Assembly: GCF_001677475.2 (NCBI RefSeq)
Contig: NZ_CP015229.1
Length of the DNA: 64,000 bases
Source: Escherichia coli
Lineage (GTDB): Bacteria; Pseudomonadota; Gammaproteobacteria; Enterobacterales; Enterobacteriaceae
Strand: one strand, 5' to 3'
Part shown: positions 13,802 through 40,011 of the stretch, one piece after another
How positions within the stretch are numbered: the first letter of the stretch is position 1
How the letters are laid out: every line of letters begins with the position of its first letter
Position numbers and translations under genes: made by a program
Notes under the pieces: generated by a model
The model's database searches: none
Seen by the model: the letters and a program-made list of their open reading frames with translations, nothing else
Told to the model about the DNA's origin: nothing

Positions 13802-14572
13802 TCACTTTTCCGATGCAACACGGCGGGAAGAATCAGCAATCTGTCGAACAATATCCCGGTGCTTGTTCAGCTCCCGCAGCGCGGCGCAGACACGCTCCCA
13901 CTTCTGGACATGATTTTTCGCCCGACGCAGTTCGCGGTTTGCCATATGCAGCGATGGTAAAACCAGGTCATCCGCTCGCGTTTCAGTAAACGATGGCAAC
14001 GACTGCACAATGTCCGCCACAGTTTCTGTTTTAATATCTTCCTGTGTTGCAGCTTCCTGTACCGGTAACGCAACACCTGCTGGCTGAGGAAAGGCTTTAC
14101 CATCGGTTTCTGCTACCGATGCAGCTTTCGGCTCTGCTGGTAAATTATCTCCAGGCATGCAGTAGCGAAATTTACCGTTCTGATTTACGCGTGCCAGGCG
14201 TCCCGTTGCGGTTACCACCGCCAGCGTGGAAGCAACCTTGCGAGTGCTGACACCGAACTTACCCGCCAGTTCCTCACATGTTTTAGCCCCCTCCTGAGAG
14301 ATAAACTCAATCATCATGTCAGCGCTAACTTTTGGAGCGACCTCTTCGGTTACCACATCCGGCGCTTCAGGTTGTAGTGCCTGCCCTTCGGTTACCCCGG
14401 ATTCACCTTCGACAGCCAGAAACCAGGTGTGACCCGTTTTATCAACAACGCCATTTTTTTTGAGTTCCCACAGTTCGTTGAGAACTTCTTCACGGCTGAT
14501 ATCAAGCCGCGCCGCCAGTTCAACAGAATTGGCTTTTCCCATCGCTTTCAGTGCATGCAGTACGGTTTCCAT
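13802..14572 (-). CDS. Hypothetical phage protein with winged-helix-like segments (256 aa)
   Basis: ORF directly downstream of DnaC-like gene. Confidence 0.5.
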
Positions 14573-14597
14573 CGAAAATTTACCTCGTCAAAAATTC

Positions 14598-15338
14598 TCA
14601 CATACCCTGACGCCCAACGTTTGATCGCCAGCTCTCCCAGTTAAAACTCACCCAACGACCACCGTTCATGGTCATACGGTCCATCACCCGCTCGCCGAGG
14701 AGTGTGCTCATCGCTGCGTGATTCAGGTTCGTCAGGATTCCGACAGTGCGCAGTGATGCCGTTCTGCGGTCGACGATCTGGTTCAGTATGACCTGCTCGT
14801 TGCGCGTATCCCGCTGCATGCCAATTTCATCCAGGACCAGAAGGTCGACCCCGCAAAGTTCCTGTAAAAATTTCTCACCGGACTTGCCGTTGTCATAGCC
14901 GTCATGCAACACGCTCATGACATCGGACACGGTGACGATAATCACGCTTCTCCCCTTCGCCATCAGCCGGTTGCCAATCGCTGCTGCCAGGTGATTTTTA
15001 CCGGTACCAGGTTTACCGCTGAACACGAAGTTTGTACACCCGGTCATCAATTCATCGGCAATGGATTTCGCCTGGCTCAGAGCATGGCGCTGACCGTCGT
15101 TCTGCACCCGGTAGTTCTCGAATGAGCACTTCCTGTGAAGCGGCTGGATGCCCGCACGGTTCAGGATTTTTTCAACCCGCGCCTGATGATTCTGGCGGTT
15201 AATTTCCTCGCTGCGCTTACGGCCCTCAGCCAGTTGCCATTCCCGCCATTCGTCGGTCGTCCGGAACGGTGCTGCCACGTGCGGTGGTGCCAGACGGCGC
15301 ACCCGTTCAAGAATCCCTCCTGTCGAAATGTTTTTCAT
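14598..15338 (-). CDS. DnaC-like replicative helicase loader (AAA+ ATPase)
   Basis: Walker A FSGKPGTGKNHLAAAIG and Walker B DLLVLDEIG in DnaC/IstB-like context. Confidence 0.8.
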   Translation of the reverse strand: MKNISTGGILERVRRLAPPHVAAPFRTTDEWREWQLAEGRKRSEEINRQNHQARVEKILNRAGIQPLHRKCSFENYRVQNDGQRHALSQAKSIADELMTGCTNFVFSGKPGTGKNHLAAAIGNRLMAKGRSVIIVTVSDVMSVLHDGYDNGKSGEKFLQELCGVDLLVLDEIGMQRDTRNEQVILNQIVDRRTASLRTVGILTNLNHAAMSTLLGERVMDRMTMNGGRWVSFNWESWRSNVGRQGM

Positions 15339-15344
15339 GGCTGA

Positions 15345-16427
15345 TTACCCCCTGAACCCCGGCGGAATTTCGGTGTCCGGTTCAGAAATGTGGTTCACGC
15401 AACGCTGGCTGACTGCGCCAGCCTTCGGCAGCGACCACGGATTTTCGAAATTCCTGTTCGGGCCAAAAAACGTCGATGCCTGCTGAACAAATTCAGTTCC
15501 CGCTTTCCCGGTAGCCTCCAGGTATCTTGCGTAACGCCTCACGCCATCCAGCACGACATCCGGTGACACCCCTTCGCGTAATCTGGCCCTCCAGGCATTG
15601 AACGCGGATTTCTTCGGGTTTGACCCTGCCCGATGCGGATATTCACGCCAGACCCGTTCGAACACGTCAGGATAATCAACTCGTCCCGCAGACGGTCCCG
15701 GCATCGCCCGGGTTAACCCAATCGGCTTCCCGCTCATCGCGGAATCGGCTTCAGGCTGCTGCGGTTGGTGTTGTTGCTCCGGTTCGACGAGCAGCACCTG
15801 CTGCACACAACGCCCGGAATCTGCTTCCGGTGTCATGCCAGCTGGTCCTGGACGTTCAGTCAGAACGGGACAAGAATCCACCAGTGGGTCCGTGGCGATT
15901 TTTTCGCCATGGACCAGAAGGGTTTTATCTCTTTCCTGTTCCTGTTCCTGTTCCTGTTCTTGGCTTGAAAGGGGCTCTGAAGGGGCTTCAATTTTCCGAC
16001 ATGATTCACGTCTGACATCCAGGTGGAAATCATCCTTATATCTATCATAAAAGGATGATAAAAAAGGATTTTCCAGCAACGCGGAATATTCATTTCTTAC
16101 CCCAGCACAACGGTTATCGCCTGGTTTCAGCGCTTCACCAACCTGCCATGCTGCCATTTCATGCACCCATACAACCTCAGAATCATGGTCATAGCTGCAA
16201 AAACCAGCCTCGCAAGCCATTTGAAGCCCCTTAGAAGCCCCTTCAGGATCAAGTCCGGTTTCGTGAGCAATGTACAAAACAGGCAGGTAATAAAGGCCCA
16301 GCATATTGGAATGAGGCGAGGTCATCATATACAACGCCACTACCATACATTCCGGACCAGACTTCCTTAGTTTTCGCCCTGTATCGCCTAACCAGAACTG
16401 AGGTGAAATTGTTGCGTAATTACGCAT
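15345..16427 (-). CDS. Replication initiator (lambda O-like replisome organizer)
   Basis: 360-aa ORF between cII and DnaC-like gene; internal repeats and an AT-rich tract inside the coding region resemble an O-gene-embedded origin. Confidence 0.55.
   Translation of the reverse strand: MRNYATISPQFWLGDTGRKLRKSGPECMVVALYMMTSPHSNMLGLYYLPVLYIAHETGLDPEGASKGLQMACEAGFCSYDHDSEVVWVHEMAAWQVGEALKPGDNRCAGVRNEYSALLENPFLSSFYDRYKDDFHLDVRRESCRKIEAPSEPLSSQEQEQEQEQERDKTLLVHGEKIATDPLVDSCPVLTERPGPAGMTPEADSGRCVQQVLLVEPEQQHQPQQPEADSAMSGKPIGLTRAMPGPSAGRVDYPDVFERVWREYPHRAGSNPKKSAFNAWRARLREGVSPDVVLDGVRRYARYLEATGKAGTEFVQQASTFFGPNRNFENPWSLPKAGAVSQRCVNHISEPDTEIPPGFRG
15935..15958. repeat. Hexanucleotide tandem repeat (CCTGTT)x4 inside replication gene
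   Basis: Perfect four-unit repeat; encodes (EQ)n on minus strand. Confidence 0.9.
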
Positions 16428-16460
16428 AGTCCCCTCGCATACAAGATTTACTCCATACCG

Positions 16461-16610
16461 CAGACGGTCCCGGTATCTCCCGGGTTAACCCAATCGGCTT
16501 CAGGCTGCTGCGGTTGGTGTGACTGCACATTGGTGTGACTGCACATCTTCACAGACGGTCCCGGTATCTCCGGGTTAACCCAATCGGCTTCAGGCTGCTG
16601 CGGTTGGTGT
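16461..16610. repeat. Two direct copies of a ~60-bp repeat, third copy at 15689-15775 inside the replication gene; includes tandem 15-bp repeat
   Basis: cagacggtcccggtatctc(c)cgggttaacccaatcggcttcaggctgctgcggttggtgt at 16461-16520 and 16552-16610; ggtgtgactgcacat duplicated at 16516-16545. Confidence 0.85.
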
Positions 16611-16680
16611 TGTTGCTGGCGAAATTCTTCCAGATGTGGCAGAATTATTACCGTGTATTGCTCCATGCCCTGCCTGAATA

Positions 16681-16977
16681 TCAGATATTCATCAGGATTT
16701 GCTCAGAACGTCCGGCCCCAACCGGACGTTTTTTATTTGCATGAACGTTAATGGCATGCTGGAAAGCCCGGCTGATCGGACTGATATCAGATGCCATCTG
16801 GAACGCGCATAAAATCGCCGCGATGTATCGCCAGTCGGTACGACTGACCTTCGATTCATGGCAGCCAATCATCTTCGCCAGTCCCCTTTGCGTCAGAGCT
16901 GACAGGTTGATAAGTAAATCCGTTTCAGCGCGATCGATATCGCGCTGCGACAGTTTGCTGTAACTTGTTTGTGACAT
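16681..16977 (-). CDS. cII: CII-like transcriptional activator
   Basis: C-terminus KKRPVGAGRSEQILMNI matches lambda CII C-terminus (KKRPAATERSEQIQMEF); position between cro and replication gene. Confidence 0.75.
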   Translation of the reverse strand: MSQTSYSKLSQRDIDRAETDLLINLSALTQRGLAKMIGCHESKVSRTDWRYIAAILCAFQMASDISPISRAFQHAINVHANKKRPVGAGRSEQILMNI

Positions 16978-17120
16978 TTCTTATGATTCCAAATAGTGAA
17001 TAGTTAGTTGAAAGGTATGCGTGGAAACGCATATGGCCTTAATTGGTCAGATATCTTGGGCCTCGCTTTTCAGCGACGTAGGACGAATGTCCATTGTGAA
17101 AAGAGCAGTGTTAATTGAGC

Positions 17121-17360
17121 TTATCGTTGACGATCAGGATTCGCTACATTGCGTAACCATTCGGCGGTAAATTTGCCATCAGATGCATTGGCGAGAATTT
17201 CCGAATAGTTGGTTTTCATCGTGTATTCGGTGCGAGGTAACGCTCCGTTTTTAACCCACTTATGAATTGCAACATTTGACAACCCGCATAAACGGGCAGC
17301 GACTGTTTGACCACCAACAGCTTTTACTGCGAATTGTATCGGATTCATACTGCTATCCAT
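17121..17360 (-). CDS. Cro-like HTH repressor
   Basis: 79-aa ORF with HTH-like QTVAARLCGLSNVAIHKWVK; divergent from cI. Confidence 0.6.
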   Translation of the reverse strand: MDSSMNPIQFAVKAVGGQTVAARLCGLSNVAIHKWVKNGALPRTEYTMKTNYSEILANASDGKFTAEWLRNVANPDRQR

Positions 17361-17440
17361 TAATTTAGTTAACTTCGAGTTAATGTTAACTATTAGCTGA
17401 CAGTTATGTCAACTATGTTTGATAATTAACGTATGGTTAA
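17361..17440. promoter_or_regulatory. Divergent cro/cI promoter-operator region (OR)
   Basis: Two perfect TTAAC-N5-GTTAA palindromes (17369-17383, 17426-17440); rc TTGACA at 17407-17412 for cro; CTGACA-18bp-GATAAT ending 7 nt before cI ATG. Confidence 0.5.
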
Positions 17441-18203
17441 AAAAGATGAACTAAAAGAAGCGTTCTCAAAGAGACTACTACAGGCATTATTAGATGCAGG
17501 TGTGGGCGGACGCGGTCAGGCTAAGCGGATTCAGAATGCAATGAAACTGCGAGGCATTGATATCTCTGAACCGGGGATCTGGAAATGGCTTAATTCTGCA
17601 TCAATTCCAGAAAAAACAAGTATTTTGGCACTTAGTGACTGGCTTTCCGTGAGGCCGGAGTGGTTGGAGTATGGCAGTAACGAGCCATCCGTAAAACAGC
17701 GACCTTCAATTCCAAACGAATCAGAATGGGGTTCCCTTGAAACTTGGGACAGAAATACACCACTACGAGATGATGAAGTTGAGGTGCCATATCTGAAAGA
17801 CATTGAGTTTGCATGCGGTGACGGAAGAGTTCATTGCGAAGATCATAATGGTTTTAAATTACGCTTCTCAAAAGCAACCCTGCGCCGTGTCGGAGCTAAC
17901 AGTGATGGTTCTGGTGTGCTTTGTTTTCCGGCTACTGGTGATAGCATGGAGCCCGTGATACCAGATGGAACAACAATCGCAGTAGACACAAACAACAAAC
18001 GTATTGTTGACGGCAAACTCTACGCCATCGCACAGCCTGGTGTCGGTGATGAAAAACTGAAGCGTATAAAACTATTGTACAGACGCCCCGGTGGAAAACT
18101 AATCATACGCAGTTATAACAGTGAAGAGTACCCTGACGAAGAAGCAGATACTCAAAGCGTGGAGATTATCGGAAAAGTTTTCTGGTATTCAGTTCTGCTT
18201 TAG
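17433..18203 (+). CDS. cI: CI-type prophage repressor (HTH N-terminus, S24 LexA-like C-terminus)
   Basis: 256-aa ORF with GDSMEP active-site motif and K-containing LexA-like C-terminal domain. Confidence 0.85.
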   Translation: MVKKDELKEAFSKRLLQALLDAGVGGRGQAKRIQNAMKLRGIDISEPGIWKWLNSASIPEKTSILALSDWLSVRPEWLEYGSNEPSVKQRPSIPNESEWGSLETWDRNTPLRDDEVEVPYLKDIEFACGDGRVHCEDHNGFKLRFSKATLRRVGANSDGSGVLCFPATGDSMEPVIPDGTTIAVDTNNKRIVDGKLYAIAQPGVGDEKLKRIKLLYRRPGGKLIIRSYNSEEYPDEEADTQSVEIIGKVFWYSVLL

Positions 18204-18213
18204 CCCCTCTCCC

Positions 18214-18237
18214 CCCGGCCTCAGAGCCGGGTTTTTT
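18214..18237 (+). terminator. Intrinsic terminator after cI
   Basis: Hairpin CCCGGC-ctcaga-GCCGGG followed by TTTTTT. Confidence 0.55.
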
Positions 18238-18366
18238 ATTAACCCAGCTAGCCAAAACTCATCTATCCTAGCTTCTATACCCCTTCATACTTGATAACCG
18301 TCGCTCACCGAACAAGCAATAATAATTAACTAAAAATCAAAAACATAGAATTTCCCCACAATAATT

Positions 18367-18409
18367 TTAACTTTTGGTTATTGACTAATGCTAACCAACA
18401 GTTAATAAT
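18367..18409 (+). promoter_or_regulatory. Candidate pL with operator half-sites (OL)
   Basis: TTGACT(18381-18386)-17bp-AATAAT(18404-18409); operator-like TTAAC-N5-GTTAT (18367-18381) and TAAC-N5-GTTA (18392-18404). Confidence 0.4.
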
Positions 18410-18445
18410 CATTTCACCAACAGGTCACCGATAACAACGCGGCCC

Positions 18446-18473
18446 CAATTGGAAAGCTCTTTAAACAACGTCG
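18446..18473 (+). promoter_or_regulatory. Candidate nutL (boxA + boxB hairpin)
   Basis: GCTCTTTAA (boxA-like) followed 5 nt later by GTCGA-acac-TCGAC hairpin, between putative pL and N-like gene. Confidence 0.35.
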
Positions 18474-18599
18474 AACACTCGACTACGTGGCTGCAAAGCC
18501 AGATCGCCCAACCGCATAAGCTGTCGGGTGCAATGCCGAAGCAATCATCTCAGGGGAGGCTTCGAGATTGCATCGCCAAAGTTTATTCGGGAGAAATCT

Positions 18600-18872
18600 A
18601 TGTCCAGAAAAACAGAATTTAAAGGCACCGCAGCTTCCCGCCGCAGAGCACGCAGGGCCGAGCTTCAGGGTCTGGAGGCATCAAGCGCTGATAAACTGCA
18701 CCGCCCCACACCTTCACGGGTGTACTTACAGTGCAAACGCAAAGCCGCAATGCGAGCTGAAGTAGTCACGATAACGACATTAACCAGAAAATATGAAGGC
18801 TCTACTTGTCTTCCAAACACTGCACTTTACGCAGCTGGCTATCGCAAATCAGGAACAATAACAGCGAGGTGA
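18600..18872 (+). CDS. N-like antiterminator with arginine-rich motif
   Basis: 90-aa ORF; N-terminal TAASRRRARRAELQGLE resembles lambda N ARM (QTRRRERRAEKQAQW); first gene right of cI. Confidence 0.55.
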   Translation: MSRKTEFKGTAASRRRARRAELQGLEASSADKLHRPTPSRVYLQCKRKAAMRAEVVTITTLTRKYEGSTCLPNTALYAAGYRKSGTITAR

Positions 18873-18875
18873 TTG

Positions 18876-19589
18876 ATGACCACGCCTTCAGTTTTGCCGC
18901 AAAAATTATGGCGTCCGCTTGCAGAGATTAAAAACTTCGTTGAAAAAATGCCTGATGGTGTTCGCCTTACGGAGGTTACAAAAAAAGTTAAGACGTTTGC
19001 CGAACTGTCAGGAAAAGAGAGAAACCAGCTCATCGATTTTATCGATAAACGGGAAAGCATCATTGTATTTAAGGTCAGAAAAGAAGGTTCTGGTAACGGA
19101 GTAACCTTTTTCCGCCACAAAAAATATGGATATCCCAAACGGGAAGGAAACGTCACAATCATTAAGGACCTTCAATCAAAATTATGTACCAAATGCGGGC
19201 AGACAAAATCAGTCAATGATTTTTATTCAGATGCCAGCAAGCGTGACGGGAGAGCCATTTATTGCAAGAAGTGCGAATCTGCAATGAAACGCTCACGCAG
19301 AGAATGCAACAAATTAATTCTGCAACAACAGGAACCTGAAATGAATAACCTCAAAGCAGTATCACCTTCACCAGAAACACTCAGAAAACAGGCTGAAGAA
19401 TTGCTGAAAGCCGCCGAAATTGCGGAGAAAAAACGCCAGGAAGATGATGTATTCAACAAAAAACTTGCGCCCTTAAAACTTGAAATTCTTCAGGCCGCCG
19501 GAAAAATGCAGCTTAAACTGGACGAATTCATCGACTGTATGGATGAAATGAATAAAGCAGTTCAGAAGCTTAAAGAGCTGACCGCCTGA
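18876..19589 (+). CDS. Hypothetical protein with Cys4 zinc-ribbon and C-terminal coiled coil (237 aa)
   Basis: CTKCGQ...CKKCES; GAGGTG upstream of ATG; follows N stop directly. Confidence 0.5.
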   Translation: MTTPSVLPQKLWRPLAEIKNFVEKMPDGVRLTEVTKKVKTFAELSGKERNQLIDFIDKRESIIVFKVRKEGSGNGVTFFRHKKYGYPKREGNVTIIKDLQSKLCTKCGQTKSVNDFYSDASKRDGRAIYCKKCESAMKRSRRECNKLILQQQEPEMNNLKAVSPSPETLRKQAEELLKAAEIAEKKRQEDDVFNKKLAPLKLEILQAAGKMQLKLDEFIDCMDEMNKAVQKLKELTA

Positions 19590-37560: not shown

Positions 37561-38595
37561 ATGGCAAAGCCGATCATCACGCTCAATGGCCTAAAAATCG
37601 TCATTATGTTGGGAATGCTGGTCATTATTCTCTGCGGTATCCGTTTTGCCGCCGAGATCATCGTGCCGTTTATTCTCGCATTATTTATTGCTGTTATTCT
37701 TAACCCGCTGGTGCAACATATGGTCCGCTGGCGAGTGCCGCGTGTACTGGCGGTGTCGATTTTGATGACCATCATCGTGATGGCGATGGTGTTGCTATTA
37801 GCTTATCTGGGTTCCGCGCTCAACGAGTTGACGCGGACGTTACCGCAATATCGCAACTCTATTATGACGCCGCTGCAAGCTCTTGAGCCGTTGTTGCAAC
37901 GCGTAGGGATTGACGTCTCAGTTGACCAACTGGCGCATTACATAGATCCGAACGCGGCGATGACGTTGCTCACCAACTTATTGACGCAGTTATCTAATGC
38001 CATGTCATCAATCTTTTTATTGCTGCTGACGGTGCTGTTTATGCTGCTCGAAGTGCCACAATTGCCCGGAAAATTTCAGCAAATGATGGCGCGTCCGGTT
38101 GAAGGGATGGCGGCGATTCAACGTGCGATTGACAGTGTTTCTCATTATCTGGTGCTGAAAACAGCCATCAGCATCATCACCGGCCTGGTCGCCTGGGCGA
38201 TGCTCGCCGCACTCGATGTTCGCTTCGCTTTTGTCTGGGGATTGCTGGCCTTTGCGCTTAATTACATCCCTAATATTGGTTCAGTTCTCGCGGCAATCCC
38301 CCCTATCGCTCAGGTACTGGTGTTTAATGGCTTCTACGAAGCGTTGCTGGTGCTGGCGGGATATCTGCTGATTAATCTGGTCTTCGGCAATATTCTGGAG
38401 CCGCGCATCATGGGACGTGGGCTGAGGCTTTCGACATTGGTGGTATTTTTGTCGTTGATTTTTTGGGGATGGTTGTTAGGACCGGTGGGTATGCTGCTTT
38501 CCGTGCCGTTGACAATTATTGTCAAAATTGCGCTTGAACAAACAGCGGGAGGTCAAAGCATCGCCGTTCTGTTAAGCGATCTCAATAAAGAGTGA
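37561..38595 (+). CDS. tqsA: AI-2 exporter family protein TqsA (YdgG)
   Basis: 344-aa polytopic membrane ORF. Confidence 0.85.
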
Positions 38596-38616
38596 CGGCC
38601 TCCGCAGAGGCCGTCA
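38593..38616 (-). terminator. Hairpin between convergent tqsA and pntB
   Basis: TGACGGCCTC-cgca-GAGGCCGTCA perfect 10-bp stem; U-rich stretch on minus strand. Confidence 0.4.
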
Positions 38617-38619
38617 GGG

Positions 38620-40011
<1,392 letters not shown>

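Follow-up and report, generated by a model that had tools for sequence, protein, structure and literature searches.

In phage lambda the replication origin lies within gene O and comprises four iterons of 18-19 bp together with an AT-rich region; the N-terminal domain of the O protein binds the iterons and its C-terminal domain recruits the loader P. Shigella phage 75/02 Stx is the type phage of 'Eru4', a replication region of Shiga toxin (Stx) phages (Fagerlund et al. 2022, PMC8951638). A text search of that paper and of the other Eru paper found neither the word 'repeat' nor the word 'iteron', and the repeats and origin of Eru4 appear not to be described in PMC8951638. A further literature search, covering the iteron sequence and papers on lambdoid origins, returned nothing on an Eru4-type module. 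The locus analysed here carries the same module as the 'Eru4' region of phage 75/02 Stx, with 98.8-99% nucleotide identity. It is contained in a 64,000-nt stretch of Escherichia coli DNA (assembly GCF_001677475.2, contig NZ_CP015229.1), the whole of which is referred to below as the window, and its most conspicuous feature is a ~60-bp sequence found once inside a replication initiator gene ('O-like', 360 aa; 15345-16427, minus strand) and twice more upstream of the start codon of that gene. We consider it fairly probable (about 0.72) that these ~60-bp repeats are an unstable, recombinogenic duplication of linker-coding DNA and that the origin consists instead of 11-bp GAAGGGGCTTC iterons and an AT-rich tract.

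The three copies, designated A, B and C, all lie on the minus strand. Copy A (15686-15779), the long form, is internal to the initiator gene and encodes the linker EQQHQPQQPEADSAMSGKPIGLTRAMPGPSAG. Copies B (16458-16522) and C (16549-16618), upstream of the initiator start codon, are short forms, the latter with a deletion of 1 bp relative to the former. Outside a single 23-bp gap the copies are 93-97% identical to one another (61 of 63 positions for A against B, 65 of 70 for A against C and 60 of 62 for B against C), and exact matches between repeats reach 41 nt, a figure far beyond chance. All three are entered in one codon phase, and C in addition leaves in the phase of A, so that its phase equals A's at both ends. 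Since the repeats are also found in six phage records and in 77 complete genomes of E. coli, they are no assembly artefact.

The 23 bp in question are an extra segment of copy A (15720-15742, minus strand) bounded by the 10-mers AATCGGCTTC, that is, a local duplication of period 23. Between B and C lies a 16-bp minisatellite, TTGGTGTGACTGCACA, present in 2.1 units (16514-16546; Tandem Repeats Finder, TRF), whose unit number varies by strain. A first-pass annotation, made from the letters of the window, had reported the repeat once within the initiator gene and as two direct copies upstream, and both this arrangement and the coordinates it gave were right. The insertion in the internal copy and the tandem repeat between the upstream copies, which it also recorded, are present as well, but they measure 23 and 16 bp rather than the 22 and 15 bp proposed.

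The identity of the repeat can be read from the initiator itself. The ~60-bp sequence is coding DNA of the inter-domain linker (QQHQPQQPEAD...PGPS), and the upstream copies are pieces of this coding DNA set into the otherwise non-coding stretch that separates cII/oop from the ribosome-binding site of the initiator. Initiators of Tritos-type E. coli phages share the linker and the C-terminal domain (65% amino-acid and about 82% nucleotide identity) and combine them with an unrelated 'replisome organiser' N-terminus and with different internal repeats, CGTGAC. Compared with these Tritos or vB_EcoS-640R1-type proteins, the present initiator thus has the same copy A sequence, down to the PEADS/AATCGGCTTC sub-repeats, whereas upstream linker copies are confined to the present side of the comparison. 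Since the linker also occurs with an unrelated N-terminus, copy A belongs to the linker and C-terminal module and not to DNA-binding specificity. The Tritos-type allele OkiPb01711 is without 24 bp exactly where B and C lack their 23 bp, so that the long and the short form of the repeat are both found in genuine initiator genes. The 23-bp segment is an indel-prone local duplication, with bona fide initiator alleles that have it and others that do not. As to how the first duplication arose, we infer that the extra copies most likely stem from an old event of illegitimate recombination or duplication. A search of the plasmid collection gave no match to the upstream region.

The number and form of the upstream copies proved variable. 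The survey set consisted of 5,426 complete E. coli genomes, in which the initiator N-terminal domain was counted at an identity of at least 98.5%. By this measure the domain is present in 77, and at least one upstream copy is likewise found in 77 genomes, taken to be the same ones. Most loci carry two upstream copies. A single copy was seen in L007 and in 4 of 29 IMG/VR loci (L023, L035, L038 and L042), while three are present in L009 and in P0001, the latter being the 102-aa variant of a 72-aa open reading frame (ORF) that runs across the upstream copies. The number of 16-mers also changes, with extra or fewer units in P0002 and P0004 (the 88-aa and 76-aa variants of the same ORF). Alleles are exchanged as well as units. 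In L009 all three upstream copies are of the long form and bear the CTGATGCC allele of the locus's own internal copy; other strains have the internal CTGATGCC allele alongside short upstream copies of type CTGAAGCC. The pattern of L009 is that of gene conversion, with the internal copy as donor and the upstream copies as recipients.

Loss of the intervening DNA is also on record. In E. coli SW071611 (L008; NZ_CM129855.1, 2431990-2432463) the left part of copy A is joined to the right part of copy C, a crossover of copy A with an upstream copy having taken out the 772 bp that code for the N-terminal domain, together with the origin, and the remnant of the initiator is annotated as frameshifted and without an N-terminus. 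Two sister wastewater isolates, SW071619 and SW07163, match over an equally short stretch with identical coordinates and probably carry this deletion too. More distantly related loci have no upstream copies at all: none was found in 51 IMG/VR loci with 72-78% identity in the N-terminal domain, nor in the homologues from Klebsiella, Fraca, Acinetobacter and Ralstonia phages. Because they are missing in distant relatives and vary in number where they occur, the upstream copies are a derived, clade-specific and unstable feature.

These observations suggest that the copies act as passive substrates for recombination. Their number is altered by unequal crossing-over, gene conversion writes the internal allele onto the upstream copies, and a crossover between an upstream copy and the internal one deletes 772 bp, comprising the DNA-binding domain and the origin, after which the prophage should be replication-dead. 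With its one to three copies, its variable minisatellite, its gene conversion and the loss of 772 bp between repeats, the locus resembles other cases of direct-repeat deletion and copy-number change in prophages. It differs from direct-repeat deletion in general in that the repeats bracket exactly the origin and the DNA-binding domain, such that one crossover should suffice to disable replication. The repeats would therefore offer a ready route to replication-dead (cryptic) prophages. The first-pass annotation had regarded the upstream copies as either extra iterons or a recombination scar, and it is the second of these that fits the evidence.

The origin most likely consists of four 11-bp GAAGGGGCTTC iterons, arranged as two helically phased pairs that flank an AT-rich unwinding tract. 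Candidate cluster 1 (16221-16246, minus strand) contains two GAAGGGGCTTC units 11 bp apart and encodes PEGASKGLQ, the predicted second helix of a winged-helix motif. Candidate cluster 2 (15966-15991, plus strand) again contains two units 11 bp apart, inverted with respect to cluster 1, and encodes EAPSEPLS. Between them lies the tract proposed as DNA-unwinding element (15992-16110; GC content 0.32-0.38, with the trough at 15990-16110), which includes a 13-nt inverted repeat (16029-16041/16047-16059). The window contains five exact AAGGGGCT sites, four of which fall within 15969-16243 as pairs spaced by 11 bp. DnaA boxes were not found in the region.

The clusters are conserved well beyond the clade that has the upstream copies. 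They occupy the same places in the gene, +185/+196 and about +440-463, in 80 of 80 IMG/VR loci, and matching clusters at both positions are present in homologues from Klebsiella, Fraca, Acinetobacter, Ralstonia and Rhizobium, although in Ralstonia and in the metagenome locus L097 they are degenerate. The homologue from a Rhizobium prophage, at 46% amino-acid identity, keeps GGAAGGGGCTTCGAAGGGGCTTC exactly. Cluster 2 is found in either orientation, the encoded peptide then being EGASKGL or EAPSKPL. Conservation was further assessed as the proportion of identical codons at identical residues in seven diverse homologues: this is 0.86-0.94 at both clusters, compared with 0.25-0.75 in the rest of the N-terminal domain. 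The elevated codon identity at the clusters indicates a constraint at the DNA level, as expected for initiator-binding sites. In Acinetobacter phage YMC/09/02/B1251 a third cluster, of AAGCCCCTT-type units with the same 11-bp spacing, is positioned directly upstream of the initiator start codon (L013, 1755-1787); this third cluster of the Acinetobacter phages has no counterpart in the E. coli clade.

Comparison with ori-lambda shows a common plan carried out with different parts. In both cases the origin, here a candidate, lies within the initiator reading frame and has phased repeats beside an AT-rich tract; the initiator has two domains; the gene order is cro-cII-(oop)-initiator-loader; and the 3' end of cII and the oop terminator are homologous in sequence. 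In contrast to lambda, the initiator is not a member of the Phage_rep_O family and the loader is DnaC-like rather than a P protein. The repeat units are of 11 bp and form two mutually inverted clusters about 230 bp apart, one on either side of the AT-rich tract, whereas lambda has its four units on one side. Moreover, the clusters are placed in the region coding for the DNA-binding domain and not in the linker. A lambda-like origin embedded in the initiator gene had been suggested by the first-pass annotation; its location within the gene and the AT-rich tract with inverted repeats stand, but the internal ~60-bp repeat, which was counted as an origin element, does not, and the 11-bp GAAGGGGCTTC units that now appear as candidate iterons had been missed. 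The GAAGGGGCTTC clusters and the AT-rich tract, as the probable origin in place of the more conspicuous 60-bp repeats, offer a concrete target both for ori cloning and for work on Stx-phage replication. Prophages of E. coli and Shigella, those of Stx1 type among them, commonly carry the Eru4 module, and its origin appears undescribed.

The initiator, a member of phrog_1701 (E=7e-151), is built from a winged-helix-like N-terminal domain (residues 1 to ~155), an (EQ)n repeat, the linker, and a C-terminal domain whose tail is DnaT-like. Pfam-A gave no match at E <= 0.001 and thus none to the lambda O family, Phage_rep_O. The AlphaFold2 (AF2) model of the N-terminal domain (predicted local distance difference test score, pLDDT, of 86) has helices at 50-57 and 61-73 followed by strands at 77-80 and 85-88, in other words a helix-turn-helix and then a β-hairpin. 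A Foldseek comparison of this model with the PDB matched winged helix-turn-helix proteins throughout, the matches being weak (E >= 6e-3, TM-score about 0.3). The domain is presumed to bind iterons that lie in its own coding region. Cluster 1, at residues 61-69, encodes EGASKGL within the helix 61-73 of the model; the presumed binding site hence overlaps the DNA for the presumed DNA-reading helix. If correct, iterons that partly encode a helix of their own presumed binder would represent an unusually tight coupling of site and binder across the Proteobacteria. This family of initiators and origins is widespread, its iterons being conserved from Rhizobium to E. coli, and at present it has no Pfam model.

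Directly 3' of cluster 2, in the orientation of the gene, is the microsatellite (TTCCTG)4.5 (15933-15959, minus strand; TRF), which encodes the (EQ)n repeat and corresponds to the (CCTGTT)x4 noted earlier. Near-identical prophages have between 4 and 8 units of it. A repeat of the SQEQEQEQ type follows cluster 2 in every family member examined, a comparison that included L011-L014, L096 and L097, and is KE-rich in the two most divergent homologues, which are of the Rhizobium type. Past the repeat, the C-terminal regions are unrelated between lineages. The (EQ)n repeat marks the boundary of a conserved module made up of DNA-binding domain plus origin.

A natural chimera was encountered in locus L047 (IMG/VR 2703718851_000010, 1501-2610), where a 78% identical N-terminal domain of the present initiator family is followed by a linker and C-terminal domain very similar to those of Tritos, as judged by eye from the translations. 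It shows domain shuffling directly after the (EQ)n repeat. The possibility that the 60-bp repeat itself serves as a domain-shuffling junction is weakened, since the point at which the shared C-terminal module meets the differing N-terminal modules follows the (EQ)n/(DK)n repeat directly and lies upstream of the 60-bp segment.

Several points weigh against the view that the repeats are a mere duplication and the 11-mers the origin. Every known member of the clade retains at least one upstream copy, and a function in cis would account for that too; a neutral scar in a clade as young as this one (at least 98.5% identity) nevertheless explains the retention. The donor of the 31-nt spacer was not found, and the event that founded the first upstream copy is not reconstructable. 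With E = 6e-3, even the best fold match to winged-helix proteins is weak. The GAAGGGGCTTC unit is quasi-palindromic, and its 'inversion' amounts to a 3-nt change at the centre of the unit. That the initiator binds the 11-mers and that the duplex opens at the AT-rich tract are both steps we infer. Finally, the ~60-bp repeats contain GAAGCCGATT, the best match found there, which shares 8 of 10 positions with GAAGCCCCTT, the iteron in inverted form.

The repeats might instead have a role under selection. They might be a device that bounds an 'origin plus DNA-binding domain' cassette and allows it to be excised, silenced or swapped, or the upstream copies might be low-affinity sites for the initiator or leader elements that tune initiator expression. 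In the first case homologous recombination would be the means, with swapping taking place between lambdoid phages, and in the second the copies would thereby tune prophage induction and Stx output. We regard such a selected role as unlikely.

A somewhat less likely proposal is that all three ~60-bp copies are iterons or auxiliary initiator sites, the internal one then belonging to the origin and the upstream ones titrating or handcuffing the initiator or regulating its expression. They are, after all, direct repeats in and beside an initiator gene; 77 of 77 E. coli genomes with the N-terminal domain have at least one upstream; each holds, besides the 8/10 match of GAAGCCGATT to the inverted iteron core, the palindrome GGGTTAACCC; and the copies within one phage can share alleles, as in L009. 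However, the internal copy accompanies unrelated N-terminal domains (and, in the Tritos type, other iterons), the upstream copies are missing from relatives with 72-78% identical N-terminal domains as well as from the Klebsiella, Acinetobacter, Fraca and Ralstonia homologues, and number, spacing and long or short form vary even among near-identical phages. The units, of 60-84 bp, far exceed known iterons in length, and cluster 2, the iteron cluster closest to copy A, is about 190 bp away from it, the AT-rich tract about 210 bp. No GAAGGGGCT within one mismatch occurs in 16428-16680 or in 15686-15779. In silico the proposal fails on two counts, a shared motif and co-inheritance with the DNA-binding domain; the likeness of GAAGCCGATT leaves a small possibility that the initiator binds the ~60-bp repeats weakly.

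The 72-aa ORF (16448-16666, minus strand; phrog_2751), which spans copies C and B, has to be considered as a third alternative, either as a real small-protein gene or as a functional upstream ORF in translational coupling with the initiator. All related records list it as a hypothetical protein, and it constitutes a PHROG family; its ATG lies 14 nt past the cII stop, and whichever frame is read, its end overlaps the start codon of the initiator or is no more than about 20 nt away. Its relatives, however, measure 41, 42, 46, 51, 58, 62, 72, 76, 88 and 102 aa and read the copies in different frames, the C-terminal sequence changing with the frame; in L009 the frame already closes within the first copy. 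Substitutions in its 17 unique N-terminal codons are all nonsynonymous. Among 5.8 billion proteins there was no homologue outside the E. coli clade, and only 10 clusters were obtained, all starting MEQY and, where a source is named, all from E. coli. Copied linker DNA of the initiator gene makes up most of its 'sequence'.

A coding or coupled role for the ORF is accordingly very improbable, and the earlier doubt that it is a real gene is borne out by its varying length and frame and by the nonsynonymous changes among the first 17 codons. The most suitable reading is that of an accidental ORF, existing only because the copies keep the linker frame open, and the repeats in this way account for a spurious 'hypothetical protein' whose annotation varies. 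By alignment, its ATG falls in sequence homologous to the cII-O intergenic region of lambda, at the point where, on the lambda map, oop presumably starts. A derivation of the MEQYT start from an ancestral lambda-like O gene, of which it would be the stub, was considered and dropped, as the aligned lambda sequence is the cII-O intergenic region and start of oop and not the coding start of O.

It is scarcely credible that the repeats form a structured RNA leader or DNA cruciform controlling transcription or translation into the initiator gene: each unit does contain short palindromes and, at its ends, a 7-nt inverted repeat (ACCGCAG...CTGCGGT), and the sense-strand fold of copy B has z = -2.8, but copies A and C and all antisense folds give z between -0.6 and +0.5, the Rfam scan of 14000-19000 was without a match, the promoter and terminator scan found no promoter-like or terminator-like site in 16428-16680, and the 1-bp indel, the 23-bp indel and changes of copy number are all tolerated.

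This part of the window is the early-right operon of a lambdoid Stx-type prophage, with cro, cII, the initiator and a DnaC-like loader in succession on the minus strand. The cI gene (17433-18203) is on the plus strand; cro (17121-17360), the cII-like activator gene (16681-16977; phrog_191, E=2e-33) and the gene for the DnaC-like helicase loader (14598-15338; NF009043, 495 bits, above the cut-off) share the strand of the initiator. A 1.7-kb segment is 98-99% identical in Escherichia phage phiSTEC1589-Stx1c, in Shigella phages 75/02 Stx and POCJ13, and in PhiR5_2. At the C-terminus of the initiator (window 15345-15420) the final ~25 residues, NHISEPDTEIPPGFRG, are similar to the end of E. coli DnaT (C-terminus; PDB codes 6aep and 2ru8), a resemblance that accounts for annotations of the protein as 'primosomal protein I'. 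These 25 residues are the only part of the initiator that resembles anything solved.

Opposite the 3' end of cII an oop-like antisense RNA is predicted (16653-16738, plus strand), its start and promoter being putative. Rfam does not include it. The intrinsic terminator of this RNA (16705-16732, plus strand) was the sole element returned by the promoter and terminator scan of the region, and the terminator and 3' half are homologous to lambda oop (alignment to lambda 38570-38690). Upstream, CAGAAT (16640-16645) aligns with CATAAT, which we take to be the -10 box of lambda pO; it is accompanied by neither a consensus -35 nor a promoter-scan match. The ~60-bp repeats start just past this putative oop promoter region.

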